Of a stretch of DNA of 64,000 nucleotides, positions 12,765 to 35,559 are shown piece after piece. This DNA comes from a virus. The stretch covers positions 64,001 to 128,000 of IMG/VR virus record IMGVR_UViG_3300042307_001176. One strand, written 5' to 3'. The notes under the pieces were generated by a model. That model was given only the letters and a program-made list of their open reading frames with translations, searched no databases and was not told the DNA's origin. The position numbers were made by a program, and so were the translations under genes. Position 1 is the stretch's first letter; each line of letters begins with the position of its first letter.

Positions 12765-13316
12765 ATGGATTTTAAAGACTTTAAAGAGTGTATAGACAAT
12801 TTAATTGAAATGCACAGAAAAAGTGACGAAGCTTATAAATTAAAAATAGACATCCTTGATTACCATGATGAATACGAGAAAGCTGTTACTATATTATGGA
12901 GTCAAATATTAACTGATACTGGACAAGACTGGTTATACTGGTATCTTTATGATAAAAATGGAATATCAGGAAAGCCTAGAAAAGATATGCAGGCTTGGGA
13001 TGAGGACAAGAAAGAAATTTGTAAAAATCTTAAGGGCCTTCATAGCTTTCTTGTAGAAAGTAATTACTTTCGAATCCAAGGTAAAAATGAAGAGGAAAAA
13101 ATAATAGACGCTAATAATATTACAGAAGTGAATAATCTTACCGATGAGAAGATGCCATGTATAATAAACTGGGATTTACACCAAAAGCTTAAAAAACCCA
13201 CTGAGATTAAAACCGAATTTGACTTTAAAAAAGAGCCAGGTAAGAAAAAAAATAAAATTAAAAAAGAAATAGTTCCTAAGAAAAAATCAAAGGACGGAGA
13301 AGATTCTAATAAATAA
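12765..13316 (+). CDS. hypothetical protein
   Basis: 183 aa ORF. Confidence 0.6.
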   Translation: MDFKDFKECIDNLIEMHRKSDEAYKLKIDILDYHDEYEKAVTILWSQILTDTGQDWLYWYLYDKNGISGKPRKDMQAWDEDKKEICKNLKGLHSFLVESNYFRIQGKNEEEKIIDANNITEVNNLTDEKMPCIINWDLHQKLKKPTEIKTEFDFKKEPGKKKNKIKKEIVPKKKSKDGEDSNK

Positions 13317-13494
13317 AAATATATGTCAGGAAAAATAAATCCAAAAATAATATTAGAAGATAAAGAGTATGAATTAGAAAAAATTCATATATCTGAACTA
13401 AATTATCTAATGGTGAGATTATTTAATCCAATAGAGAAGAATTATATTACTTACAATCTTGGTGATTATAATCCCGAGAATAATTTTATAAAAG

Positions 13495-14612: not shown

Positions 14613-14861
14613 ATGGAAAAAAAAATAACAGCAGATACTCAATCAAATAGACTAAAAGATGACATTCGAACTGAGTTTGATAAGATAAAGTGGATGATCG
14701 ATGAACATACACGAGTACAGGATAATCAAATTAAATTTAGAGATGAATTAATTAAAGTATTATACTCCCAAGTAGTAGATCTAACTATGATGTCCAAAAT
14801 CGAATTGGGAGATGATGTGATAGCAGAAATTAAACGACTAAAAGATATTATCAATGAATAA
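14613..14861 (+). CDS. hypothetical protein
   Basis: 82 aa ORF overlapping the start of thyA. Confidence 0.5.
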   Translation: MEKKITADTQSNRLKDDIRTEFDKIKWMIDEHTRVQDNQIKFRDELIKVLYSQVVDLTMMSKIELGDDVIAEIKRLKDIINE

Positions 14862-15879
14862 TCTAGATAAACAATATATAACTTTACTCCAAGATATTCT
14901 AGATAATGGAGTAACAAAATCAGATCGTACTGGTACTGGAACACTTTCAGTATTTGGTAGACAAATCAGACACAAGATGAGTGATGGGTTTCCGTTACTT
15001 ACAACAAAGAAAATGCCATTCAAAACAATCACAACGGAATTACTATGGTTCTTACGTGGAGATACAAACATTAAATTCCTTGTTGATAATAATTGTCATA
15101 TTTGGGATGGTGATGCTTATAAGAACTATTGTATATCTTACAAAGACGGTCACGAGTTTTATGAAGATGAAGAAGTAAAACGTTCATACACACAAGAAGA
15201 ATTCATTAATAAAATCAAAACAGATGATGACTTTGCTAAGAAGCGGGGAGAATTAGGACCAATCTATGGGGCACAATGGAGAAATTGGACATTACATAGC
15301 GTAGGACCAAATGACTCTTTCCCTATATATGTAGACCAAATTAAACTATTGATTGAACAACTTAAAACAAATCCAGACTCAAGACGATTAATGGTTAATG
15401 CTTGGAATGTAGGTGAATTAGACCAAATGGTTCTTCCCCCGTGTCATTATGGATTTCAAGTTTATACAAGACCAACAACCAGAGAAGAAAAAATAACAAA
15501 TCCTGGAAAATACAGAGCAATTTCTTTAAGCTGGAATCAACGTTCAGCAGATACATTCCTAGGTTTACCTTTTAATATTGCTTCTTATGGTCTACTACTT
15601 GAAATCATTGCAAAAGCAGTGGATATGGTTCCAGATGAATTGATTGGTAATTTAGGTGATACGCATTTGTATTTGAATCACATCGAACAAGCAAAGGAAC
15701 AGATTACTAGAGAACCTATGAAATTAACAGAATTAAATATTAATACTGAATTCTGGGAACCTAAATATTTGTTAGATTTATTAGAGAAAGGAACATTTAT
15801 AAAATGTTTAATAGAAGAAGATATACAAATGCTTAATTACCAATCACATCCGGCAATTAAAGCGCCTTTGTCTAATTAG
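14854..15879 (+). CDS. thyA: thymidylate synthase
   Basis: DRTGTGT, ELLWFL, LPPCH, QRSADTFLGLPFNIASY, HLYLNH. Confidence 0.95.
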   Translation: MNNLDKQYITLLQDILDNGVTKSDRTGTGTLSVFGRQIRHKMSDGFPLLTTKKMPFKTITTELLWFLRGDTNIKFLVDNNCHIWDGDAYKNYCISYKDGHEFYEDEEVKRSYTQEEFINKIKTDDDFAKKRGELGPIYGAQWRNWTLHSVGPNDSFPIYVDQIKLLIEQLKTNPDSRRLMVNAWNVGELDQMVLPPCHYGFQVYTRPTTREEKITNPGKYRAISLSWNQRSADTFLGLPFNIASYGLLLEIIAKAVDMVPDELIGNLGDTHLYLNHIEQAKEQITREPMKLTELNINTEFWEPKYLLDLLEKGTFIKCLIEEDIQMLNYQSHPAIKAPLSN

Positions 15880-24505: not shown

Positions 24506-26152
24506 ATGTCAAGACTAGGCGAATTTGCTGACAAAAAAACAGCAATGCAAATTTTACAAAACTCCTCTTACGGAGCACTAGGAGTAGAGAACTTCATGGG
24601 TGGAACATCTTATTCTTTATCCCCACTGAACACATTAAAGATTGTTGCTGCGTCTTCAATCTTTGGAGAACCACAGTATTATAGAGATGGACTTGGATCA
24701 CCTAAAAATCTTAGTACAATTTTAGAGTATTCAATACTTTCACCGCTGTTCAAAAAAGAATCAGGAGAAGTTATAGACAATATGACTTCATTGGACATAT
24801 TTGAAATTGCCATACAAGCAGCTTTAGACTTTGACTTTAAAGCAACATTAGATTTGACATTAGAACTTCGTAACGAGTACTACATGCGTCTAAATCCTGC
24901 TGTAATATTCATGAAAGCGAGTATGCACGAAGGACGTCAGGAGTTCAACGAGAAAAATCCAGGTTACATGAAAAAGATAGGTAAATCTATTGCTCTACGT
25001 CCAGACGATTTGACCAACCAATTCGAATACTACATGTATAAGAATTCGTCTAAAAAAGGTCTTTCATCATTAGTGAAAAGAACTTGGGCAGAAAAACTTG
25101 CAGAATTCTCTCGTTACCAATTAAACAAATACAAAGGTAAAAGTCTAATTGATCTTGTTCGTATCTCGCATGCTAAGAGTGAAGATATTAACGAGCTAAT
25201 GACAACAGGAGGATTAAAAGTATCTGACGCAGAGAAAACTTGGGAGAATCTAAAATCAGAAGGAAAAAACTGGAGAGATATCACAGACACAATCTTGATT
25301 CCCCATATGGCTCTTTTAAGAAACCTTAGAGGTATTTTTACTGAGATCGAAGATCCTTCAACTACAGCAAGAATCTTAGCTCAATTAAAAGCTGGAGTTA
25401 TTAAAGGTAAACAATTTCCTTTCAGATATTGGTCAGCTTATAAAGCAGTATCAAATTCTCAAATACATCACAAACAACTTGTATTGGATACATTAGAAGA
25501 GTGTCTAGATATTTCAGTTGAGAACATGCCTAAATTAGGAGGTAAAACTGTGTGTCTTTCTGATAACTCAGGATCTGCATGGAGTGCTTTCAATAGCGAA
25601 TATGGATCAGTTACTGTTGCCGAAATTGCTAACTTGTCATCTTTGATCACTTCACTCCAATCTGATTCAGGGGAAGTTGGAGTATTTGGAGATAATCTTT
25701 CGTTAAAAGGAGTATCTAAAAGAAATGGGCTTCTTACACAATTGGAAGAGACATCAGAAAGAGGTAGAGCTCAAGGAGGTGGTACAGAAAATGGTATTTG
25801 GGTATTCTTTGATGATGCTATCAAAAAAGGAACACAATATGACAATATCTTCATCTACTCCGACATGCAAGCAGGACATGGTAATCTTTATGGACACAGA
25901 GAAACAGTAGGGAGAACTAATTTTGTTCATTCAACGAAAGGAGGGACATACATTGACGTACTTGCAATGGCTCAAGAATATAGAAACAAAGTTAACCCTA
26001 AAGTGAATTTATTCACTGTACAAGTTGGTGGTTATAATAACAGTGTTCTACCAGAATCATTATACAGAGGAGCAATTTTAGCTGGATGGACAGGTAAAGA
26101 GCCGGTTTTTGCTAAAGCAATTATAGATGCTTGGGATTCAGAAGAAGCATAA
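24506..26152 (+). CDS. rsr: Ro60/Rsr TROVE-domain RNA-binding protein with vWA domain
   Basis: ENFMGG, FGEPQYY, KYK...DLVRISH, TWE, MALLRNL, FPFRY, MIDAS DNSGS. Confidence 0.9.
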   Translation: MSRLGEFADKKTAMQILQNSSYGALGVENFMGGTSYSLSPLNTLKIVAASSIFGEPQYYRDGLGSPKNLSTILEYSILSPLFKKESGEVIDNMTSLDIFEIAIQAALDFDFKATLDLTLELRNEYYMRLNPAVIFMKASMHEGRQEFNEKNPGYMKKIGKSIALRPDDLTNQFEYYMYKNSSKKGLSSLVKRTWAEKLAEFSRYQLNKYKGKSLIDLVRISHAKSEDINELMTTGGLKVSDAEKTWENLKSEGKNWRDITDTILIPHMALLRNLRGIFTEIEDPSTTARILAQLKAGVIKGKQFPFRYWSAYKAVSNSQIHHKQLVLDTLEECLDISVENMPKLGGKTVCLSDNSGSAWSAFNSEYGSVTVAEIANLSSLITSLQSDSGEVGVFGDNLSLKGVSKRNGLLTQLEETSERGRAQGGGTENGIWVFFDDAIKKGTQYDNIFIYSDMQAGHGNLYGHRETVGRTNFVHSTKGGTYIDVLAMAQEYRNKVNPKVNLFTVQVGGYNNSVLPESLYRGAILAGWTGKEPVFAKAIIDAWDSEEA

Positions 26153-27027: not shown

Positions 27028-27306
27028 ATGTCGGTTTCGATCTATTCCACTTATAATGAATTTAAATTTGCAGATACAGAATCATGTGAATACTTAGAAT
27101 CTGTTGAATCAGACTATGAAGACGATTCAGATAAGGATGTGTTCTTTTATACAGAAAGCAAACTAGATCCTATAGATGACGCATCTTTTTATGTTGTAGC
27201 TGATACAGAGGACGAGGATATTGCCGAAGATATTTCTAATTACCTAGGAAAGTTTAGTAAGTTTTTTCTTATTGATCTACACAAGACTATTTTCGTTATA
27301 AAATAA
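27028..27306 (+). CDS. acidic hypothetical protein
   Basis: 92 aa ORF. Confidence 0.55.
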   Translation: MSVSIYSTYNEFKFADTESCEYLESVESDYEDDSDKDVFFYTESKLDPIDDASFYVVADTEDEDIAEDISNYLGKFSKFFLIDLHKTIFVIK

Positions 27307-27383
27307 TCTAAAAACATTTTTTTTATAATAGAAAAGTTCTATATTTGTGAAACAAAATAACAAAGAGAACATATAATACTCAA

Positions 27384-27443
27384 ATGAACAAAACAATTAA
27401 CATATTACCTATATCATTAAGACCGTCGTCAAGACGATCCTAA
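27384..27443 (+). CDS. leader peptide 1 (MNKTINILPISLRPSSRRS) of the tRNA operon 1 attenuator
   Basis: Follows TATATTTG (27340); 3' part is ATA/TCN/AGA/CCN codons matching the downstream tRNAs. Confidence 0.8.
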   Translation: MNKTINILPISLRPSSRRS

Positions 27444-27524
27444 AGGTCCTATGTTAATAAAAAATAATCATTAACTAAACCGGGACCTTTAAAAGTCTCG
27501 GTTTTTTTTTGTGTTCTTTGACAT
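27441..27524 (+). promoter_or_regulatory. attenuator 1: antiterminator, terminator and boxA
   Basis: taaaggtcct (27441-50) pairs with gggaccttta (27482-91); terminator aaaccgggac/gtctcggttt plus T run; GTTCTTTGACAT at 27513-24. Confidence 0.8.
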
Positions 27525-27540
27525 GTTGGATTATAAAATT

Positions 27541-27630
27541 GGAGAGTTGCCAGAGCCAGGCTTAATGGATCAGTCTTGAAAACTGACGTAGCGAAAGTTA
27601 CCGGGGGTTCGAATCCCTCACTCTCCGCCA
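27541..27630 (+). tRNA. tRNA-Ser(TGA)
   Basis: Cloverleaf, tcagt-cttgaaa-actga, long variable arm, encoded CCA. Confidence 0.95.
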
Positions 27631-27633
27631 ATT

Positions 27634-27707
<74 letters not shown>

Positions 27708-27713
27708 CACAAA

Positions 27714-27872
27714 GCCCTCTGCCTAGCGCTGGGTATGGATCGAAGATAGAATATGCCTCTACAACGTAGACAGTTAGAATATTTCGGTATTCTTTAATGA
27801 TATGCACACTTATTCTCTAAATCGTGGGTTAGCACAGTTTGTATGTTCTGGGGATATTTAAAGACATACAAT
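27714..27872 (+). ncRNA. unidentified structured spacer RNA in tRNA operon 1
   Basis: Hairpins tgccta/tgggta, tctac/gtaga, agaatat-ttcg-gtattct, ttgtatgt/acatacaa; no plus-strand ORF in the track. Confidence 0.35.
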
Positions 27873-27874
27873 TT

Positions 27875-27947
27875 CGGGATGTAGATCAGTTGGTAGATCG
27901 CCTGGTTTGGGACCAGGAGGCCGTCAGTTCGAGTCTGGCCATCCCGA
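27875..27947 (+). tRNA. tRNA-Pro(TGG)
   Basis: cctgg-tttggga-ccagg. Confidence 0.95.
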
Positions 27948-27954
27948 CATCAAT

Positions 27955-28028
27955 AGAGGCGTAGCTCAATTGGTTAGAGCACATGCCTTATACGCATGCG
28001 GTCACGAGTTCGACTCTCGTCGTCTCTA
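27955..28028 (+). tRNA. tRNA-Ile(TAT)
   Basis: catgc-cttatac-gcatg. Confidence 0.9.
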
Positions 28029-28032
28029 CTTA

Positions 28033-28106
28033 GGTCCCTTAGCTCAGTAGGTTAGAGCAACTGACTCATAATCAGTAGGTCCACGGTTCGAGCCCGTGAG
28101 GGACCA
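28033..28106 (+). tRNA. tRNA-Ile2(CAT), lysidine type
   Basis: actga-ctcataa-tcagt; GGTCCCT acceptor resembles bacterial Ile2 rather than Met. Confidence 0.8.
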
Positions 28107-28167
28107 CTAAATTTTAAAGTCTTTAGGAGAACAAAAGTTCATGCTGGTTCAGATCCAACCTCTTGTA
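28107..28167 (+). pseudogene. decayed class II tRNA 3' remnant, probably Leu(TAA)
   Basis: ctaaa/tttag stem with a TTAA-containing loop, variable arm gaac-aaaa-gttc, T-arm-like gctgg-ttcagat-ccaac, discriminator A; no D arm. Confidence 0.4.
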
Positions 28168-28189
28168 TTTTTTGGATATATAATAAATC

Positions 28190-28561
28190 ATGAATGATCA
28201 TATTAGAATATCCGGACTCGGTATAGAAATATACAAAAATGATATACCAGGAGTGAGATGGAATAAAGCTCAGACTTTTGCAGAATTTCTTAAAGATGGG
28301 TGGAGGTTGCCTACATTAAAAGAACTTGCTTTAATAAAAACACTAAGGGATGTTGGAGGCATAGGAAGATTTCCTGCGGAATATTCGGATTTTTCTGATT
28401 CATATTATTGGAGCGGAAAAGAAGGAGAAGCTGCCACTCTAAGAACTCAATTAAAAGACGGAAGTAGTAGTTATGCTTATTACTTTGATGTGGCTAAAGG
28501 AATTTCTTCACATAGTAAAAAAGCATACGATCTTAGGGTTAGGTTTGTCAGAGATATATAA
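28190..28561 (+). CDS. DUF1566 (Lcl C-terminal)-like domain protein
   Basis: W..A...GWRLPT.KEL...YYWS...RVRFVR. Confidence 0.75.
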   Translation: MNDHIRISGLGIEIYKNDIPGVRWNKAQTFAEFLKDGWRLPTLKELALIKTLRDVGGIGRFPAEYSDFSDSYYWSGKEGEAATLRTQLKDGSSSYAYYFDVAKGISSHSKKAYDLRVRFVRDI

Positions 28562-28564
28562 TGT

Positions 28565-29416
28565 ATGGCAACAACAAGACCTTTTTCGTATAATCCAACG
28601 CAATCAACAATTGCTGGAACTACTAATTTAGGTACCATATGTATAGGAGTATCTGATTTAGACTATGCTGCTAGCCCTGGAGGATTAACGTGGTGGATGG
28701 GACCGGATGAAGATAATTCTTATGTAGTATGCAAGGATGTACCAGCTCAAAATTTCCCTACTCCGTTAGGAAATATAGGCAATGTACAATTTTGGAGATG
28801 CACTAATACAGATTTAGCATTTAGAGATATGGTATCTACAATAAGTGGTACTACACAAGCATCGGCTTCAGCAGCTAGTGATTGGTTAGCATCTAATAAC
28901 TATTGGACTAACAGAAATCCATATCTTGCAGGTCTATATAAAACAACTTACTCTGGATATTTCGCAGATTCAGTTAGTTTCTTTGCAACTGCAACTCCTC
29001 AAGCATTTGGAACAAACCCAGCTACTTCTGTACAAACTACTGCAATATCAGAAGCAGCTAGTGGTGATGGTGATTATTTTAGTTGTCAATGGTTGGGTTA
29101 TTTCAGTCCGACTACTACTCAAACTTATACATTTTACACCAACTCGGATGATGCATCTTATGTGTGGGTTGGAGCAAATGCGATATCTGGATTTACTACA
29201 GCAAACGCAACAGTCAATAATGGAGGTGCTCATGGTCCTATAGAGGCATCAGGTTCTATAGATCTAACTGCAGGAGTTTATTATCCTATAAGAATTCAAT
29301 TCGGTGAAGCCGGCGGAGGTGATGTACTTACTTTCAATTATTCAACACCAACGATAGCAAAAACAACTAATGTAACAGGATTAGTTTTCTATAATACATC
29401 AACTAACGGATTCTAA
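28565..29416 (+). CDS. putative virion fibre/decoration protein with PA14 domain
   Basis: W.GYF.P...YTFYTNSDDASYVW...YYPIRIQFGE.GGG. Confidence 0.75.
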   Translation: MATTRPFSYNPTQSTIAGTTNLGTICIGVSDLDYAASPGGLTWWMGPDEDNSYVVCKDVPAQNFPTPLGNIGNVQFWRCTNTDLAFRDMVSTISGTTQASASAASDWLASNNYWTNRNPYLAGLYKTTYSGYFADSVSFFATATPQAFGTNPATSVQTTAISEAASGDGDYFSCQWLGYFSPTTTQTYTFYTNSDDASYVWVGANAISGFTTANATVNNGGAHGPIEASGSIDLTAGVYYPIRIQFGEAGGGDVLTFNYSTPTIAKTTNVTGLVFYNTSTNGF

Positions 29417-29421
29417 AACAT

Positions 29422-30198
29422 ATGGCAACAACAAGAGCATTTTCATATAATCCAACACAATCAACAATTGCGGGAACTACGAATGTGGGTACTCTATGTA
29501 TAGGTGTATCTCCTTTAGCATATAGTACTAACCCTGGTGGATTAACCTGGTGGATGGGACCAGACGAAGATAATTCTTACGTGATAGCTAAGGATGTATC
29601 AGCTGGAAATTTTCCCACTCCTGTAGGGAACGTAGGTAATGTACAATTTTGGAGATGCACTAATACGGATTTAGCATTTAAAGATTTAGTATCTATAATA
29701 AGTGGTACTGCACAAGCATCGGCTTCAGCAGCTAAATCATGGCTAACAACAAATAATTATTGGACTAATTATACCAGTGGTGTAACTTTCTCTCGCCCTT
29801 TCGTTAATGGTATTGCACCAGGAGCTACCACAGAAACTGCTTGGAATACATTCAGAGCAGCATTAACGGGATCTTATACACAATTTGTTATATCAAATTC
29901 ATTAGGATTTAGTCTAACCGTAAGCCATGCTACTTCGGTCCAAACTTTGGCAGATGCTTTAAAAAATGCAACAAGCAATACCTCAGTAACTATAAACAGC
30001 GTAGTTTGGAGAGTGGGAACAGCTTGTGGAACTCCTTCTATTGGTGGAGTTGCTGTTGAATTTTCTAATGTAGGAAGCTGTACTGGATCAAGTACTATAG
30101 CATTTAGACCTATGATTAATAACTTAAACTGGGGAGGTATGGGTACAGGGTCTACTGTAAGCCAGGCTTCTCAAACAATGACACTAACATTTAGCTAA
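29422..30198 (+). CDS. paralog of 28565: shared N-terminal ~115 aa, different C-terminal domain
   Basis: Near-identical MATTR.FSYNPTQSTIAGTTN...NNYWTN N-terminus. Confidence 0.75.
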   Translation: MATTRAFSYNPTQSTIAGTTNVGTLCIGVSPLAYSTNPGGLTWWMGPDEDNSYVIAKDVSAGNFPTPVGNVGNVQFWRCTNTDLAFKDLVSIISGTAQASASAAKSWLTTNNYWTNYTSGVTFSRPFVNGIAPGATTETAWNTFRAALTGSYTQFVISNSLGFSLTVSHATSVQTLADALKNATSNTSVTINSVVWRVGTACGTPSIGGVAVEFSNVGSCTGSSTIAFRPMINNLNWGGMGTGSTVSQASQTMTLTFS

Positions 30199-30361
30199 TG
30201 GAAAATTATAGAATAATGAATATAACAGTAACACCATATATTGTTGTTCCTGGTAAAGAATCGCTAACTCTAGAAGAATGCATATTGTGGATAAATGAAA
30301 ACGGAGGAGATTGTCCTTTATGTAATTACACCATACAGCCATCGGAACATAATATATAGTC

Positions 30362-30494
30362 AGATATATAAGTAATGAAAACATTTAAAGATTTTATTTA
30401 CGAAAAAATTAATGAAGACACATTATCGTATAGGGGATTAGTTTTCTATAATACATCAACTAACGGATTTTAAAACATATGGCAACAACAAGAG
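30362..30494 (+). repeat. chimeric duplication scar
   Basis: 30362-30440 identical to 30630-30708; 30435-30494 matches 29378-29437; junction microhomology GGATTA. Confidence 0.85.
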
Positions 30495-30642
30495 AATTTG
30501 CATATAATTTACAATAAATTAAATAAATAGAGAATATTAAAAATTAGGCAAAGTAACCACAAACCCACTGGTAATAGGCAGTTCTTGAGATGGAATGCAA
30601 TATAAAACGTAAGTCCTGCTTTGCCTTTTAGATATATAAGTA

Positions 30643-31227
30643 ATGAAAACATTTAAAGATTTTATTTACGAAAAAATTAATGAAGACACATTATCGTATA
30701 GGGGATTAAAATTTAATTTTAATTCAACTATCGATGGGTATGTTAAAGTAAAAGAAGATGATCCAACTATATCATTTGATAGTGAAACCTCGTTTGATAA
30801 ACTTATAATAACCGATCCTCGTGAATTCTTTAACTTTAGATATGATAATGAAAAGGATAATAAGAACTTATCTTCTATTGATTCAGAAAATGTTCTTAGA
30901 ATTAGAATTGGATCTAAAGATTTTAAGGGAAGATCCGGCGGGGTTACTCATGTATCTGTAAGAGTCCCTGAAAATTTTGACTATAATAAATTTCAATTAG
31001 AGTTACCTAATATAAAGATAGCGCTTACAGATAGAACTGAAGTAGACAGAGTTATTAAAGAAGTTGAGGCTCTTGTAACTAAATGTGCAGGGGAAGAACC
31101 TAATGCGTATTCAGATAATAAACCAGATTACAGACAGGACATCGTAAATTTTATTAAATCTATAGAAGAAAAGCTAGGTAAAGAAGATACCAAAAGAATA
31201 TTTATTGATATTATTAATAAATTGTAA
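30643..31227 (+). CDS. hypothetical protein (MKTFKDFIYE peptide)
   Basis: 194 aa ORF after GATATATA. Confidence 0.65.
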   Translation: MKTFKDFIYEKINEDTLSYRGLKFNFNSTIDGYVKVKEDDPTISFDSETSFDKLIITDPREFFNFRYDNEKDNKNLSSIDSENVLRIRIGSKDFKGRSGGVTHVSVRVPENFDYNKFQLELPNIKIALTDRTEVDRVIKEVEALVTKCAGEEPNAYSDNKPDYRQDIVNFIKSIEEKLGKEDTKRIFIDIINKL

Positions 31228-31265
31228 AATTTAATTTACATAGATAAGAATATATAAAATAAAAA

Positions 31266-31544
31266 ATGAAACATCTTAAAAAATATCAATCTAATAATTC
31301 AGAAATTAACGAAGGATTTTGGGATTCTCTTTTTGGCAAACCCACTGTTGATGATGCTGCTCATGACCAAATGAGAGGTCAAGGATGGAGCCACAGAGGT
31401 AAAGACGAAGAAAATTATATCATGTTTCAAGGACAAAAGTTCTATCCAGAACAGATCCAATATGATGATGCTTATTCAACTAAACAAATACCAAGAGTTG
31501 AAGGTGGTATGCTAATCGTAGCTAACCCAGCTTGGAATTTATAA
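31266..31544 (+). CDS. hypothetical protein (MKHLKKY peptide)
   Basis: 92 aa ORF after GAATATATA. Confidence 0.6.
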   Translation: MKHLKKYQSNNSEINEGFWDSLFGKPTVDDAAHDQMRGQGWSHRGKDEENYIMFQGQKFYPEQIQYDDAYSTKQIPRVEGGMLIVANPAWNL

Positions 31545-31633
31545 TAAAAATAAAAAAATATCAGAAATCGTTTTTTAATGAGAAACTTTTCTGTACATTT
31601 GGAGTATATAATAAAAAAGGAACAAAACTTTCA

Positions 31634-31723
31634 ATGAAACACTTTTTAAATATCGCAACAGATTTTCAACTTCGTAAAGAGGATGACCTTCTAGAGGATA
31701 GATTTAAGTGTCAGAGGAAATAA
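31634..31723 (+). CDS. leader peptide 2 (MKHFLNIATDFQLRKEDDLLEDRFKCQRK) of the tRNA operon 2 attenuator
   Basis: Follows TACATTTG (31594); EDDLLED run matches the downstream Glu, Asp and Leu(TAG) tRNAs. Confidence 0.8.
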   Translation: MKHFLNIATDFQLRKEDDLLEDRFKCQRK

Positions 31724-31794
31724 ATTTATATAATGATATAATTTAAACCTCTGATAACCTCAGAGGTTTTTTTGTTTTATACGCTCTTTGAAAT
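31711..31794 (+). promoter_or_regulatory. attenuator 2: antiterminator, terminator and boxA
   Basis: tcagagg (31711-17) complementary to cctctga; terminator aaacctctga/tcagaggttt plus T run (31745-31773); GCTCTTTGAAAT at 31783-94. Confidence 0.8.
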
Positions 31795-31797
31795 TAC

Positions 31798-31869
31798 GCT
31801 GCCATCGTCTAACGGTTAGGACCTATGGTTTTCATCCATAAAATCGGAGTTCGATTCTCCGTGGCAGTA
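31798..31869 (+). tRNA. tRNA-Glu(TTC)
   Basis: tatgg-ttttcat-ccata. Confidence 0.93.
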
Positions 31870-31880
31870 CAAAAAATTAA

Positions 31881-31955
31881 GGTCCCGTAGTTAAACGGCT
31901 ATAATGCTGCCCTGTCACGGCAGAGTTCGGAGTTCGATTCTCCGCGGGACCGCCA
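31881..31955 (+). tRNA. tRNA-Asp(GTC)
   Basis: ctgcc-ctgtcac-ggcag; encoded CCA. Confidence 0.95.
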
Positions 31956-31963
31956 AATTATAT

Positions 31964-32036
<73 letters not shown>

Positions 32037-32040
32037 CTAA

Positions 32041-32121
32041 GCCCAGGTGGTGAAATGGTATACACGCTAGTCTTAGAAATTAGTGACGTAAGTCGTGAGG
32101 GTTCGAGTCCCTCCCTAGGTA
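32041..32121 (+). tRNA. tRNA-Leu(TAG)
   Basis: ctagt-cttagaa-attag; long variable arm. Confidence 0.92.
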
Positions 32122-32123
32122 CT

Positions 32124-32693
32124 ATGAAAATTATATTTTTAGATCATGACGGTGTAATTTGTCTTTCCCAACAATTTGGAGGACGTTACAAAAAGCAGGC
32201 TAAAGCTAGAAAAAAGCTTTCTCAGGATCTGATGACTTTTCCTGTTGGAGCTAGGTTTGATAATTTTGATAAGAAAGCAATAAAGGTTTTAAATACAATC
32301 TTAGAAGAAACAGGAGCTGAAATAGTGGTTTCTTCAGATTGGAAAAACTGGGCAACTGTAGAAGAAATGGGTGAATACTATAAAGAGCAAGGAATTATTA
32401 AAACTCCTATAGATTTCACTCCTAGAGAATACACGTTACCAGAGAAACAAGAATGGCATCCAGATTGGGATTTAGAAGCATCAAGAACTTTAGAAATCCA
32501 AGAATGGTTGAAAGATCATCCAGAAGTCTCTCATTGGGTAGCAATAGATGATTTGGATATGAGTTTTAAAGAAGTATCTTCTAATAGAAGCGGTACCGGA
32601 TGGGGATTAATAAATTTCGTACACACTCCAAGCCTTAATGAAGGTATTAAAAAATGTGGAATTAAAGAAAAAGTTTTAAAATTTTTAAAATAA
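32124..32693 (+). CDS. HAD-superfamily phosphatase (HAD_SAK_2, RNA-repair-associated type)
   Basis: IIFLDHDGV, IVVSSDW, EI..WL...WVAIDD; start is the ATG right after tRNA-Leu. Confidence 0.8.
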   Translation: MKIIFLDHDGVICLSQQFGGRYKKQAKARKKLSQDLMTFPVGARFDNFDKKAIKVLNTILEETGAEIVVSSDWKNWATVEEMGEYYKEQGIIKTPIDFTPREYTLPEKQEWHPDWDLEASRTLEIQEWLKDHPEVSHWVAIDDLDMSFKEVSSNRSGTGWGLINFVHTPSLNEGIKKCGIKEKVLKFLK

Positions 32694-32790
32694 TTTAAGA
32701 AATCATTTTTTTATCCCGTTACATTTGGTTATCTTTGTAATATAAATTAACAAACTTTATTTACAATTTACAATTTACAAAAAACCTATT

Positions 32791-33168
32791 ATGAAAAATC
32801 AAAAATTAAAAAGAGTTACTATGAGTGTATCTCACGAGAATCCTGATGCACAGGTAAATTTTAAATCAATCGGAATTGGAAAAGATCAAAGAGAAGCAGC
32901 TATTTTTGCTTTAGGATCTTTCTTAAATGTTATAGATGGAGTAAGCCAAGAAGGTATATCAGATTACAACGAAGCTTTGGAAATGGTTAATGCTCAATAT
33001 TCGGAAGCTGAAATAGTATCATTTACTGAAACCCAATTGGAAAGGGCAAAAGATGCTTTTATTACTACTTACGAAACAACTAAAGTTGATTATGTTTGGG
33101 ACGAAGTAGAAGATGGAATGGCTTTGGGCTTGATCGAAGGATTAGAAATAATCGAAGAGGAATATTAA
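32791..33168 (+). CDS. acidic hypothetical protein
   Basis: 125 aa ORF behind a TAnnTTTG promoter. Confidence 0.6.
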   Translation: MKNQKLKRVTMSVSHENPDAQVNFKSIGIGKDQREAAIFALGSFLNVIDGVSQEGISDYNEALEMVNAQYSEAEIVSFTETQLERAKDAFITTYETTKVDYVWDEVEDGMALGLIEGLEIIEEEY

Positions 33169-33254
33169 AAAATATCAAAAAACATCTTTTTATTCAAAAA
33201 AGATATTGTACTTTTGCGAAACTATTCTGGAAACAGGATATATAATTAAGAAAA

Positions 33255-33362
33255 ATGAAAAACTGTAGTAAACATAACATCAATCGCATGATCAGTCAGA
33301 TTAATGGCTGCTATCAAACGGTGGCGTTTTGGGCAAAGGGGAAAGAACCCGATCGAAGCTAA
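33255..33362 (+). CDS. leader peptide 3 (MKNCSKHNINRMISQINGCYQTVAFWAKGKEPDRS) of the tRNA operon 3 attenuator
   Basis: Follows TACTTTTG (33209); first 30 codons use exactly the 16 amino acids of the 16 downstream tRNAs. Confidence 0.85.
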   Translation: MKNCSKHNINRMISQINGCYQTVAFWAKGKEPDRS

Positions 33363-33436
33363 TACAGGAAATCATATTTAGATATTTTGGAAAAGGCTTT
33401 GATTCACATCAAAGCCTTTTTTTTGTTCTTTGACAT
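33351..33436 (+). promoter_or_regulatory. attenuator 3: antiterminator, terminator and boxA
   Basis: gatcgaagct (33351-60) pairs with ggctttgatt (33395-404); terminator aaaaggctttgat/atcaaagcctttt plus T run; GTTCTTTGACAT at 33425-36. Confidence 0.8.
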
Positions 33437-33448
33437 ACTGGAAAAAAT

Positions 33449-33521
33449 GGTACCGTAGCTCAGTCGGTAGAGCACTAGACTGAAAATCTAGGTGTCGCCG
33501 GTTCGATTCCGGCCGGTACCA
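33449..33521 (+). tRNA. tRNA-Phe(GAA)
   Basis: ctaga-ctgaaaa-tctag. Confidence 0.95.
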
Positions 33522-33531
33522 CAATTAAAAT

Positions 33532-33604
33532 GATCTCGTAGCTCAGCTGGTAGAGCACCGCACTTTTAATGCGGGAGTCGAGGGTTCGAGCCCCTCCGGG
33601 ATCA
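33532..33604 (+). tRNA. tRNA-Lys(TTT)
   Basis: ccgca-cttttaa-tgcgg. Confidence 0.95.
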
Positions 33605-33610
33605 CTACAC

Positions 33611-33683
33611 ACATCAGTAGCTCAATTGGTAGAGTGTTGGTCTCCAAAACCAAAGGTTGTAGGTTCGATTCCTACCTGGTGTG
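33611..33683 (+). tRNA. tRNA-Trp(CCA)
   Basis: ttggt-ctccaaa-accaa. Confidence 0.95.
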
Positions 33684-33689
33684 CTAAAA

Positions 33690-33762
33690 GGCTCTGTAGT
33701 TCAAGGGATTAGAATGGATCACTACGGATGATCTGATCCTGGTTCGAATCCAGGTGGAGTCT
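33690..33762 (+). tRNA. tRNA-Arg(ACG)
   Basis: gatca-ctacgga-tgatc. Confidence 0.92.
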
Positions 33763-33773
33763 CAAACAAATAG

Positions 33774-33844
33774 GGTCGTGTGGTCGAGTGGTTAGGCACT
33801 AGTCTGCAAAACTAGTTATACTGGTTCAATTCCAGTCACGACCT
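33774..33844 (+). tRNA. tRNA-Cys(GCA)
   Basis: ctagt-ctgcaaa-actag; U73. Confidence 0.95.
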
Positions 33845-33861
33845 CAAAAAAATTTAAAAAT

Positions 33862-33999
33862 ATGATGATAGAAAGTAAAATAGTAGCCAGAGGAAGTTTC
33901 CCCTCAAGCAGAGAAAACTTAAGAAGAGAAACATTAAAATTTAATAGAGCCAAAATATTGATCGGAAGAATTAAAAGACTAATTAACAAAGGAAAGTAA
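33862..33999 (+). CDS. small basic ORF inside tRNA operon 3
   Basis: 45 aa MMIESKIVARGSFPSSRENLRRETLKFNRAKILIGRIKRLINKGK; stop overlaps the 5' end of tRNA-Ser. Confidence 0.4.
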   Translation: MMIESKIVARGSFPSSRENLRRETLKFNRAKILIGRIKRLINKGK

Positions 34000-34076
34000 T
34001 CTCAGATGGTGACGGGGCTCGCCTGCTAAGCGAAGCGTACCTTAATTGGTATTTGGTTCGATTCCAATTCTTTCCG
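33991..34076 (+). tRNA. tRNA-Ser(GCT)
   Basis: tcgc-ctgctaa-gcga; long variable arm; G73. Confidence 0.85.
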
Positions 34077-34082
34077 CAACAT

Positions 34083-34159
34083 TGACATATAGCTCAGTTG
34101 GTTAGAGCGTTGATCTGATACGTCAAAGGCCGAAGGTTCGAATCCTTCTATGTCAACCA
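34083..34159 (+). tRNA. tRNA-Ile(GAT)
   Basis: ttgat-ctgatac-gtcaa; encoded CCA. Confidence 0.92.
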
Positions 34160-34164
34160 CATTT

Positions 34165-34237
34165 AGTCTCTTAGCTCAGTTGGCAGAGCGTTTGGTTTAC
34201 ATCCAAAATGTCGGGGGTTCGAATCCCTCAGGGACTA
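34165..34237 (+). tRNA. tRNA-Val(TAC)
   Basis: tttgg-tttacat-ccaaa. Confidence 0.93.
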
Positions 34238-34239
34238 CA

Positions 34240-34321
34240 AGATTAGAAGCGGCGAATGGGGTTACTTCTCAGAACTTTTAAATTTGACCAAAAAACACCT
34301 CGCTCAAATATTCTCTAATCT
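34240..34321 (+). ncRNA. Y-RNA-like structured RNA, copy 4, within tRNA operon 3
   Basis: agattaga/tctaatct; GAAGCGG; GGGGTTACTTC; AACAC; AATATTCTC, same architecture as the 24042-24436 copies. Confidence 0.7.
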
Positions 34322-34326
34322 AAACT

Positions 34327-34398
34327 GGGGATGTAGCTCAGCGGTAGAGCTCTCGACTGTTAATCGATAGGTCGCTGGTTCGAATCCAGCCTTCCCCG
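34327..34398 (+). tRNA. tRNA-Asn(GTT)
   Basis: tcga-ctgttaa-tcga. Confidence 0.93.
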
Positions 34399-34403
34399 CA
34401 ATT

Positions 34404-34485
34404 CGGAGTGTTGAGCAATTGGCTGCTCAGCTGACTGTAAATCAGCCGCCTTAAGGCATTGGGGGTTCGAATCCCTCCGCTCCGA
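34404..34485 (+). tRNA. tRNA-Tyr(GTA)
   Basis: gctga-ctgtaaa-tcagc; long variable arm. Confidence 0.92.
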
Positions 34486-34505
34486 CACAGTGTATCTGTA
34501 AGATA

Positions 34506-34558
34506 TAGAGACGGACAGTCCGACGGTTGAAGTGGATGCGTAATTCCACACGTCTCTA
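34506..34558 (+). ncRNA. unidentified small structured element
   Basis: tagagacg/cgtctcta closing stem with internal gtgga/tccac hairpin. Confidence 0.35.
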
Positions 34559-34561
34559 AAT

Positions 34562-34637
34562 GCGATAGTAGCTCAGTTGGTAGAGCACCGTCCTTCCAAG
34601 TCGGGGGTCGCAGGTTCGAATCCTGTCTATCGCTCCA
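34562..34637 (+). tRNA. tRNA-Gly(TCC)
   Basis: cttccaa loop; U73 and CCA. Confidence 0.93.
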
Positions 34638-34638
34638 C

Positions 34639-34711
34639 GGGGTAGTAGCTCAATTGGCTGAGCGCTTCCTTTGCAAGGAAGAGGATGTGGGTTCAAGTCC
34701 CATCTACTCCA
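34639..34711 (+). tRNA. tRNA-Ala(TGC)
   Basis: cttcc-tttgcaa-ggaag; G3:U70. Confidence 0.95.
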
Positions 34712-34718
34712 CTTATAT

Positions 34719-34791
34719 GGCGAGTTAGCTCAGTTGGTAGAGCGTTGGAATCATACCCCAAAGGTCGGCAGTTCGAACCTGCCACTCGCTA
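34719..34791 (+). tRNA. elongator tRNA-Met(CAT)
   Basis: GGCGAGT acceptor; atcatac loop. Confidence 0.85.
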
Positions 34792-34793
34792 CT

Positions 34794-34870
34794 GTGACGG
34801 TAGCTCAGTTGGTTAGAGCGTCTGATTGTGGTTCAGAAGGTCGGGGGTTCGATTCCCCTCTGTCACCCCA
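34794..34870 (+). tRNA. tRNA-His(GTG)
   Basis: tctga-ttgtggt-tcaga; C73 and CCA. Confidence 0.93.
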
Positions 34871-34871
34871 T

Positions 34872-34944
34872 GCCTTTGTAGCTCAGTTGGTAGAGCACTT
34901 CACTTGTAATGAAGATGTCGCAGGTTCAATCCCTGTCAAAGGCT
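34872..34944 (+). tRNA. tRNA-Thr(TGT)
   Basis: cttca-cttgtaa-tgaag. Confidence 0.95.
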
Positions 34945-34950
34945 CTAAAT

Positions 34951-35023
34951 TGTCCTGTGGTGTAATTGGCAACACGTCTGGTTTTGGACCAGAAGAGTCC
35001 AGGTTCGAGCCCTGGCGGGACAT
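34951..35023 (+). tRNA. tRNA-Gln(TTG)
   Basis: tctgg-ttttgga-ccaga; U1-A72. Confidence 0.93.
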
Positions 35024-35070
35024 CTAAAAAATAAGATAAATAGATTGACCAGTGTGTAAAAAATGTAGTT

Positions 35071-35559
35071 ATGAAAGTGCTAGTTCTAAATAATGACTTT
35101 ACTCCTATAAGTGTTACCGACTTTGCTCGTGGATTTAAGCTTGTGTATAAAGGTAAAGCAGAAGTTTTAGAGCACGATGAACAAAATCCAATTGTTACTG
35201 AACAAAGCACTTACAAAAGACCTTCTGTTATCAGACTTTTAAAATATGTTGTATTGCCTTTTAAGAAGTTAAAACCGACTAGGGAAAATATCTTTAGAAG
35301 AGATGGGATGAAATGTGTTTATTGTGATACTACTAAGAACCTAACAATAGATCACGTTCTACCTAGATCTAGAGGTGGAGTTAATACATGGGAGAATCTA
35401 ACAACATGTTGTTCAAAATGTAACAATAAAAAAGATGACAGGACTCCAGAAGAAGCTGGAATGAGAATGAGACAGAAACCATTCAAGCCAGGATACGGAT
35501 ATTTTATACGCAATTTCGCAAAAGGATTGGAGGTATGGACAGCATATCTCCCTGATTAA
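35071..35559 (+). CDS. HNH endonuclease
   Basis: VLVLN...PSVIRL...RD...CVYC...TIDHVLPRSRGG..TWEN...C..CN..K. Confidence 0.9.
   Translation: MKVLVLNNDFTPISVTDFARGFKLVYKGKAEVLEHDEQNPIVTEQSTYKRPSVIRLLKYVVLPFKKLKPTRENIFRRDGMKCVYCDTTKNLTIDHVLPRSRGGVNTWENLTTCCSKCNNKKDDRTPEEAGMRMRQKPFKPGYGYFIRNFAKGLEVWTAYLPD

Follow-up and report, generated by a model that had tools for sequence, protein, structure and literature searches.

A putative trp-type attenuator ahead of a phage tRNA operon, with a leader ORF rich in the codons of the operon's own tRNAs

Why phages carry tRNA genes and how these genes are controlled are open questions. The locus described here poses the second one in a concrete form: what decides whether RNA polymerase reaches a group of tRNA genes that lies behind an intrinsic terminator? 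The locus is found in a window of 64,000 nucleotides, i.e., positions 64,001 to 128,000 of the IMG/VR virus record IMGVR_UViG_3300042307_001176. All coordinates given below refer to this window and its plus strand, unless an accession is named. The source record comprises 154,411 bp with 33% G+C and contains 24 tRNA genes, which are grouped in three blocks. Our answer is that the segment ahead of five of them, Leader 1, is probably a ribosome-mediated attenuator of the trp type that gates a phage tRNA operon by reading the decoding speed of the codons which the operon serves. The case is built on observations, which are the anatomy of the sequence, its statistics, its conservation and the recurrence of the design in unrelated leaders. 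A preliminary description had already proposed Leader 1 as an attenuator that senses Ser, Arg, Pro and Ile(ATA). The proposal finds support, since its predictions hold at the level of sequence and folding models and comparative data agree; its coordinates, codons and pairings for Leader 1 were, item by item, correct on re-check.

The layout is simple. From 5' to 3' one finds a TAnnTTTG box, an A-rich 5' region, an ORF, a spacer of 33 nt, a stem-loop with nine T, a conserved motif and the tRNA genes. The box (27340..27347), which we take to be the -7 element of Bacteroidota promoters, is followed by a conserved GTGAAAC and is invariant, or nearly so, in all nine Leader 1 orthologs. It also occurs upstream of two more leaders of the same genome, Leaders 2 and 3, and upstream of a leader in Cellulophaga phage phi38:1. 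Since it shares the promoter box with the latter phage, the window's phage presumably has a host among the Bacteroidota. Leader ORF 1 (27384..27443) starts with ATG 37 nt past the box, has 19 codons plus TAA and is conserved in eight other distinct phages. No second promoter-like box is seen ahead of the tRNA genes. A short ORF, as an attenuator requires it, thus appears to reside within the transcription unit of the tRNAs, and it is kept in nine phages.

The operon (27541..28107; ARAGORN) is composed of tRNA-Ser(TGA) (27541-27630), tRNA-Arg(TCT) (27634-27708), a spacer of 166 nt, tRNA-Pro(TGG) (27875-27948), tRNA-Ile(TAT) (27955-28029) and a tRNA with a CAT anticodon on an Ile-like body (28033-28107). 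The first four had been named correctly before. The designation of the fifth as Ile2 is plausible, by elimination rather than by proof: its D-arm is like that of the adjoining Ile tRNA, and the two other CAT tRNAs of the genome resemble initiator and elongator Met, respectively. The one at 31964 bears the marks of an initiator, namely a 1-72 mismatch and three G-C pairs beside the anticodon loop; the one at 34719 has the look of an elongator. Behind the CAT tRNA, alignment with eight relatives reveals a deletion scar (28108..28170), where the relatives have a tRNA-Leu(TAA) and, in addition, the 5' portion of another tRNA-like element.

What does the leader ORF spell? Codons 7-19 (27402..27440), the sensing block, comprise Ile-ATA, Leu-TTA, Pro-CCT and Pro-CCG, Ser-TCN, Arg-AGA and a single CGA; they read ATA TTA CCT ATA TCA TTA AGA CCG TCG TCA AGA CGA TCC, as had been claimed. 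Of the 18 internal codons, the five downstream tRNAs read ten, where 2.9 would be expected (binomial P 1.3e-4); the tRNAs of the second block read none. The expectation was derived from codon usage in 123 long ORFs from the same genome, with bacterial wobble rules applied generously. The CAT tRNA was scored as a reader of ATG and ATA, which leaves the count for Leader 1 unchanged, since ATA has a reader in Ile(TAT) anyway. Of all 837 short ORFs in the genome (all ATG ORFs of 15-45 codons in six frames), only leader ORF 1 attains this level. The regulatory codons of an attenuator have to be clustered, and in the relatives the density is higher still (12-13 of the first 18 codons).

Two peculiarities of the sensing block, however, count against reading it as part of an attenuator. 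The CGA is kept in the orthologs, yet has no reader in the operon; its only reader in the genome is Arg(ACG), sited in the third cluster. The two TTA codons, in turn, are unserved in the window's phage itself, because the tRNA-Leu(TAA) present in the relatives has been lost by deletion. The earlier remark that no intact tRNA of the operon serves the TTA codons and the CGA was right.

By prediction, the transcript can adopt three structures of similar energy that exclude one another. If no ribosome interferes, the 5' strand of the antiterminator would be sequestered in a protector (1:2) hairpin of 22 bp (27396..27458), which belongs to the minimum-energy fold and has a calculated energy of -17.1 kcal/mol. 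The strand in question (27441..27450) begins with the TAA stop codon. Alternatively, it can form 10 bp, nine Watson-Crick pairs and one G-U, with the antiterminator 3' strand (27482..27491), which overlaps the 5' arm and the loop of the terminator. A small inner hairpin (27453..27475; 27453-58 paired with 27470-75) fits into the antiterminator loop. The intrinsic terminator (27477..27510), finally, has a 10-bp stem and an 8-nt loop (stem-loop 27477-27504) followed by the nine T, excludes the antiterminator and lies 30 nt ahead of tRNA-Ser. Antiterminator and terminator were thus recovered as first described. The protector was not quite: the pairing of GACC (27421-24) with GGTC (27445-48) around a TCGT/ACGA hairpin does exist, but is worth only -4.5 kcal/mol, and the larger hairpin wins.

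The calculated energies are instructive. The terminator amounts to -13.4 kcal/mol, the antiterminator to -11.6 kcal/mol alone and to -14.3 kcal/mol with the inner hairpin. The two being nearly isoenergetic, the decision of the switch must be kinetic, which is a point against the attenuator. In an RNA that is truncated ahead of the terminator 3' arm, the antiterminator is within the minimum-energy fold. The antiterminator duplex as such reaches -15.5 kcal/mol, as compared with -7.7 +/- 2.0 kcal/mol in dinucleotide shuffles of the leader (P 0.003).

The influence of a ribosome was modelled by constrained folding, whereby the RNA was blocked from the transcript start to 12 nt beyond the initial nucleotide of the A-site codon; the footprint size was assumed. 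A ribosome on codons 1-2 leaves the terminator with a probability of 0.94-0.95. With A-sites at 27396-27420, the probability drops to 0.07-0.66, the lowest values being reached at Ser-TCA (27414) and Leu-TTA (27417). From 27423 through the stop codon it is back at 0.68-0.95, with 0.95 at the stop. The stop codon provides the first three bases of the antiterminator strand, and a ribosome residing there would cover that strand, as the preliminary description had it. The constrained folding which it had suggested as a check also agrees in that stalled ribosomes are predicted to free the antiterminator, but within the footprint model this is limited to ribosomes halted at about codons 5-13. For a ribosome halted in the later half of the cognate block, from 27423 on, the equilibrium ceases to favour the antiterminator, which has to be counted against the attenuator. 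Taken together, the constrained folds yield a geometry that matches a trp-type attenuator.

From these elements the following mechanism can be proposed. Transcription would start from the promoter box at 27340, and a ribosome would engage the 19-codon leader while RNA polymerase proceeds. Given an ample supply of the tRNAs for Ile-ATA, Leu-TTA, Pro-CCN, Ser-TCN and Arg-AGA, this ribosome should get as far as the stop codon and cover 27441-50. The terminator at 27477-27510 could then form, and transcription would end ahead of the tRNA genes. A shortage of any one sensed tRNA would instead make the ribosome stall within the early half of the sensing block; the protector hairpin would be opened and 27441-50 would become free to pair with 27482-91. 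With the antiterminator formed, there would be no terminator, and the polymerase would run into the genes for Ser, Arg, Pro, Ile and Ile2. The tRNAs thus produced would ease the stall, which amounts to a negative feedback. The motif behind the terminator, which is boxA-like (see below), may help a polymerase that has passed the terminator to stay processive across the tRNA genes, which are untranslated. We infer, in this scheme, that ribosomes read the leader ORF, that its translation is coupled to transcription and that the switch works in vivo; the same applies to any cause of tRNA depletion. Candidates for the latter are the codon demand of the phage, host shut-off and cleavage of tRNAs by defence nucleases.

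Orthologs of Leader 1 were retrieved with the help of two neighbouring proteins, a Ro60-like protein of 548 aa encoded 1.2 kb upstream and a downstream protein of 283 aa, which led to 127 IMG/VR loci. Among these, the Leader 1 unit precedes Ser(TGA)-Arg(TCT) in eight further distinct phages, all of them uncultured, whose Ro60 proteins are from about 89% down to about 69% identical to that of the window's phage. ORF, terminator and antiterminator are conserved in all eight, and every one of their operons ends with tRNA-Leu(TAA). In their leaders, codons 7-17 are accordingly all cognate, 11 in a row; a CGA and a Ser codon come next.

The way in which the orthologs vary is telling. Seven positions of codons 7-19 are variable, and all 12 variant codons are cognate ones (Ile-ATA, Leu-TTA or Ser-TCN). 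In codons 2-6 the same holds for only two of 14 variant codons (Fisher P 9e-6). When the single-step null probabilities are multiplied over the 12 variants of the sensing block, 2e-4 results. Variation thus swaps the amino acid between Leu, Ser and Ile and leaves the codon set unchanged. A homologous leader is found in the loci L011/L012. Its operon contains Arg(TCT), a homing-endonuclease-like ORF, CAT, Ile(TAT) and Leu(TAA) and is devoid of Pro and Ser tRNA; both Pro codons are gone from the leader and a third Arg-AGR codon has been gained, while some Ser codons are kept.

The RNA structures persist as well. Across the orthologs, 94% of the cells are paired in the antiterminator, 99% in the terminator and 90% in the protector; with slid partners the figures are 10-70% overall and 27-42% for the protector. 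Against the attenuator, however, stands the covariation in the alignment of nine Leader 1 sequences, which is negligible because the helices hardly vary: there is one double change, which is matched by 50 of 500 shuffles, and the protector hairpin displays no covariation across the orthologs. By eye, the relatives have a hairpin of different sequence at the position of the inner hairpin, where the local alignment is poor. The ORF stops at 27441 in four of the nine phages and five codons downstream in the other five, in which the antiterminator strand falls within the ORF. Judged from the sequences, both stop positions would permit a terminating ribosome to mask the antiterminator strand.

The same genome contains two further leaders with the same layout as Leader 1. 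The Leader 2 unit (31634..31769) consists of a 29-codon ORF, an antiterminator (31709-17 with 31748-56) and a terminator, and it precedes tRNAs for Glu, Asp, Met and Leu(TAG). Its ORF contains a run of seven consecutive cognate codons (Glu, Asp and Leu-CTN), which is unique among the 837 short ORFs. The Leader 3 unit (33255..33422), a 35-codon ORF plus terminator, lies ahead of the block of 15 tRNAs, and 28 of its 34 codons are cognate.

Nor is the design confined to this genome. A simple terminator rule was applied to 247 distinct tRNA-cluster starts from all loci retrieved, and 37 of them have a terminator at most 100 nt upstream. Among the non-orthologous ones, six unrelated leaders precede clusters of different composition: Asn, Tyr, Asp, Met, Thr, Glu and Gly in the first; Phe, Leu, His, Cys and Gln in the second; Pro, Ser and Ala in the third; Pro, Thr, Lys, Gln and Trp in the fourth; Cys, His, Leu and Arg in the fifth; and Phe, Ile, Trp, Gln, Met and others in the sixth. 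Five of the six leaders are individually enriched for the codons of their own cluster (P 1e-6 to 1e-3). For a formal test, the ORF was chosen by a fixed rule, namely as the longest ATG or GTG ORF that ends at most 90 nt before the terminator.

Each leader was then scored against every cluster, and permuted assignments served as the null. For nine leader families, which may be a biased sample, the matched Z values sum up to 29.9 (P below 1e-5). For the 11 non-orthologous clusters preceded by a terminator, the sum is 29.5 as against -1.2 +/- 5.5 in the permutations (P below 5e-6). Two of these 11 clusters, however, have no matched leader, which again counts against the attenuator. The codon match has a structural counterpart: in all nine families, the strongest duplex with the terminator 5' arm falls within a span from 35 nt ahead of the stop codon to 15 nt beyond it, with P values of 0.003-0.13 for the individual families. 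In the distant phage L036 (386 kb), inspection by eye showed a GGAG-type sequence reminiscent of a Shine-Dalgarno element 7-10 nt before the ATG of all three leaders.

Of course, the combination of short ORF, hairpin and tRNA cluster could be a coincidence, the more so as the region is AT-rich and short ORFs abound in this genome, as their number of 837 attests. Chance is nevertheless contradicted by the statistics of codons, duplexes, variant codons and permutations and by the conservation in eight other phages, and we consider it scarcely credible.

A cultured example is available, too. In Cellulophaga phage phi38:1, a 25-codon leader (NC_021796 35283-35360) belongs to the first tRNA block; 17 of its 24 codons are cognate to the downstream tRNAs for Lys, Ile, Gly, Met, Asp, Thr, Val and Arg (P 0.02). 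A terminator is present, and a G-rich stretch at the end of the ORF is complementary to the terminator 5' arm. Promoter box and design are the same as in Leader 1, whereas the tRNA set and the sequence of the leader differ. The annotation merely lists a hypothetical protein that starts from an alternative codon upstream. Searches of GenBank phage DNA with the region, near and distant, yielded matches to tRNAs only and no named relative of the leader; tblastn with a neighbouring protein yielded no useful named relative. Bacillus phage G has a Ro60 homologue with 51% identity, but no comparable leader in the region examined; by eye, promoter-like sequences are seen there directly before the tRNAs. 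Among the small ORFs in the tRNA region of phage T5, no terminator-linked design was found. A Cys-rich ORF before the tRNA-Cys of T5 was considered as a leader and dismissed, as it rather resembles a zinc-binding protein of the CxxC type.

Directly 3' of the terminator lies a conserved motif of 13 nt (27512..27524), which is invariant in the orthologs. With its ending GA(A/C)AT, it occurs three times in the 154-kb genome, each time just past a leader terminator. It resembles the core of the rrn boxA, (G/C)TCTTT followed by (A/G)A. In bacterial genomes, one of 120 exact matches to a 14-mer of the motif is found in an rrn leader, 351 nt before the 16S gene. The other matches look random, and for this reason the likeness to boxA stays inferential. 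By analogy to the Nus-factor antitermination of rRNA operons, where such a motif also stands ahead of untranslated stable-RNA genes, it might load Nus factors, so that an escaped polymerase could cross the untranslated tRNA genes. The literature searched contained nothing relevant on a boxA-like motif of this kind.

The motif could also be seen as a promoter, and the consequence would be serious, since the tRNAs could then be made independently of the attenuator. The ORF would be an ordinary small gene or the stretch a non-coding spacer, the terminator an ordinary one, and the codon match irrelevant. The motif does contain TTTG, which forms the core of promoter elements in Bacteroidota, and it is sited 4-17 nt ahead of the first tRNA. 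Also, many tRNA clusters of T5 and Bacillus phage G, which have no such leader, are directly preceded by promoters that are annotated or seem by eye to be present. Yet the TA of the TAnnTTTG box is missing from the motif, and no upstream element is seen at the spacing that would be expected, which is why the role of a promoter element is disfavoured. Moreover, tRNA synthesis from such a promoter leaves unexplained why the codon set is conserved despite changing amino acids, why unrelated leaders match their clusters and why an antiterminator is found near the end of the ORF in nine of nine families. We therefore regard this explanation as improbable.

A different matter is what the attenuator would respond to. 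The signal could be the destruction of tRNAs by host defence or phage-induced shut-off; the leader would then act as a damage sensor that switches on replacement tRNAs, and not as a regulator of housekeeping supply. Phage tRNAs can indeed replace tRNAs that are depleted during infection. The architecture fits such a role equally well, and the leaders sample every isoacceptor of their own block, as if working through a checklist. The sequence, however, offers no feature by which depletion by a nuclease could be told from plain demand by codon usage, and we hold the role of a damage sensor to be possible but rather doubtful.

The attenuator proposed for Leader 1 could be extrapolated to phages in general. 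Many large phages, with hosts of different phyla, might share a modular, re-programmable tRNA sensor. In each of them, the leader ORF of a block would be spelled in exactly the codons of that block, and the block would be switched on as soon as any one tRNA becomes limiting, for instance upon cleavage by a host anticodon nuclease. Taken as a whole, this generalization is speculative, and we would rather bet against it. If it were true, the leaders would constitute a built-in damage sensor for counter-defence and, at the same time, the first example of a leader-peptide attenuator whose sensed molecule is also its regulated product, the tRNA.

How does Leader 1 compare with established systems? 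The mechanism class is that of classical leader-peptide attenuation. Among the multivalent attenuators of enterobacteria, the thr leader senses Thr and Ile, and the ilvGMEDA leader senses Ile, Leu and Val. With these Leader 1 has in common a short ORF in which regulatory codons of several amino acids are gathered, three alternative hairpins (2:3, 3:4 and a predicted 1:2), an intrinsic terminator that precedes the first structural gene, and a stop codon so positioned that a terminating ribosome would block the antiterminator. It differs from them in being encoded by a phage and in the choice of codons, which is made by isoacceptor (Ile-ATA, Arg-AGA, Leu-TTA) and not by amino acid alone. Above all, it would regulate tRNA genes instead of biosynthetic enzymes, so that the product would be the molecule sensed. 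The classical targets, genes of amino-acid biosynthesis or aminoacyl-tRNA synthetases, are not found behind the terminator; five tRNA genes are there instead. This is the point of novelty and leaves the mechanism unaffected.

Along with thr and ilv, the pheST and pheA (pheL) leaders of E. coli are the closest systems. They, too, control a component of the translation apparatus via decoding of cognate codons, yet they are chromosomal, respond to one amino acid only and have a protein gene as their target. The subject of PMC3082878 is the pheL leader and not tRNA genes.

The T-box riboswitch binds uncharged tRNA directly and does not need translation. It resembles Leader 1 in that the state of a specific tRNA is answered by a choice between terminator and antiterminator; in Leader 1, by contrast, a translated ORF is proposed to do the sensing. 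An Rfam scan of 27300-35100 revealed no match to the T-box model at E up to 1. None of the Rfam leader families scored above threshold, the best one, Thr_leader (RF00506), reaching 22.8 bits versus the required 55 (E 0.84, i.e., chance level), and no other cis-regulatory family exceeded its threshold either. In the literature searched, which covered few subscription journals, no relevant report on leader-peptide attenuation of tRNA genes or operons was found. New are the tRNA genes as the regulated genes, the sampling of the isoacceptors of its own block by the leader and the phage-borne, modular nature of the system.

The practical sides are easily named. The leaders could be of use in annotation, because the codon content of a leader predicts the tRNA content of its operon. 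The leaders are also a compact natural design for synthetic tRNA-responsive switches. With Cellulophaga baltica NN016038 and phi38:1, a cultured pair with the same design exists, which makes the idea testable at the bench.

If the attenuator reading is true, phages would sense and correct their tRNA supply block by block. Testable predictions would follow for the adaptation of codon usage and for the escape from defences that target tRNAs. Classical attenuation would, finally, be extended from genes of amino-acid biosynthesis and synthetases to those of stable RNAs, Bacteroidota hosts included.

A boxA-like motif occurs at only three sites in the whole 154-kb phage genome (27512-27524, 31782-31794 and 33424-33436), each lying directly 3' of one of the three leader terminators.

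The operon behind Leader 1, the proposed attenuator of the first tRNA block, differs among related uncultured phages. Its tRNA-Arg and tRNA-Pro are separated in the window by a 166-nt spacer (27709-27874). This spacer, which could be an inserted structured RNA, is kept in most relatives with a length of 166-174 nt; the loci L005, L010 and L038 lack it, and the two tRNAs there are only about 5 nt apart. Comparison of window 28108-28170 with 14858-15060 of the related locus L007 reveals that the phage has lost a tRNA-Leu(TAA). The same deletion took the 5' part of an element of about 100 nt that follows this tRNA. With its T-arm and a stem of acceptor type, the element resembles a tRNA; ARAGORN made no call for it in the relatives. 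At the locus L011, a homing endonuclease-like ORF (12823-13491) interrupts the Leader 1-type tRNA operon between the Arg(TCT) and CAT tRNAs. A close relative, L002 (5700-5990), has no leader within 260 nt 5' of its tRNA-Ser. Since these 260 nt look, by eye, like the end of a coding sequence, the attenuator may have been displaced or replaced by an insertion.

Upstream of Leader 1 the window encodes a Ro60/TROVE protein (24506-26152). It has 48 relatives among IMG/VR phage contigs, in many of which the gene sits just upstream of the tRNA region, and gp540 of Bacillus phage G is 51% identical to it.

Behind Leader 3, which precedes the 15-tRNA block, a tRNA-like gene (33990-34076) carries GCT (Ser-AGY) in its anticodon loop, and its variable arm is long. 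It is missed by ARAGORN and scores 38.3 bits with the tRNA-Sec model, which is under the threshold. Leader 3 contains three AGT/AGC codons, which this putative GCT tRNA would decode.

A possible leader was also considered in phage T5. T5.070, a 42-residue ORF on the minus strand (14628-14756), lies directly 5' of tRNA-Cys and contains 5 Cys codons (P 8.5e-5). No terminator was identified behind it, and its CxxC pairs suggest a zinc-binding protein rather than a leader.

The leader of the cultured Cellulophaga phage phi38:1 and Leader 2, which precedes the second tRNA block, share an identical short peptide stretch within about their first ten codons (35283-35312 and 31634-31665, respectively), and the start of Leader 1 resembles both beginnings. 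The leader cassettes may be paralogous modules in which the sensing block, written mostly in codons read by the tRNAs encoded behind the respective leader, has been replaced by a new one.
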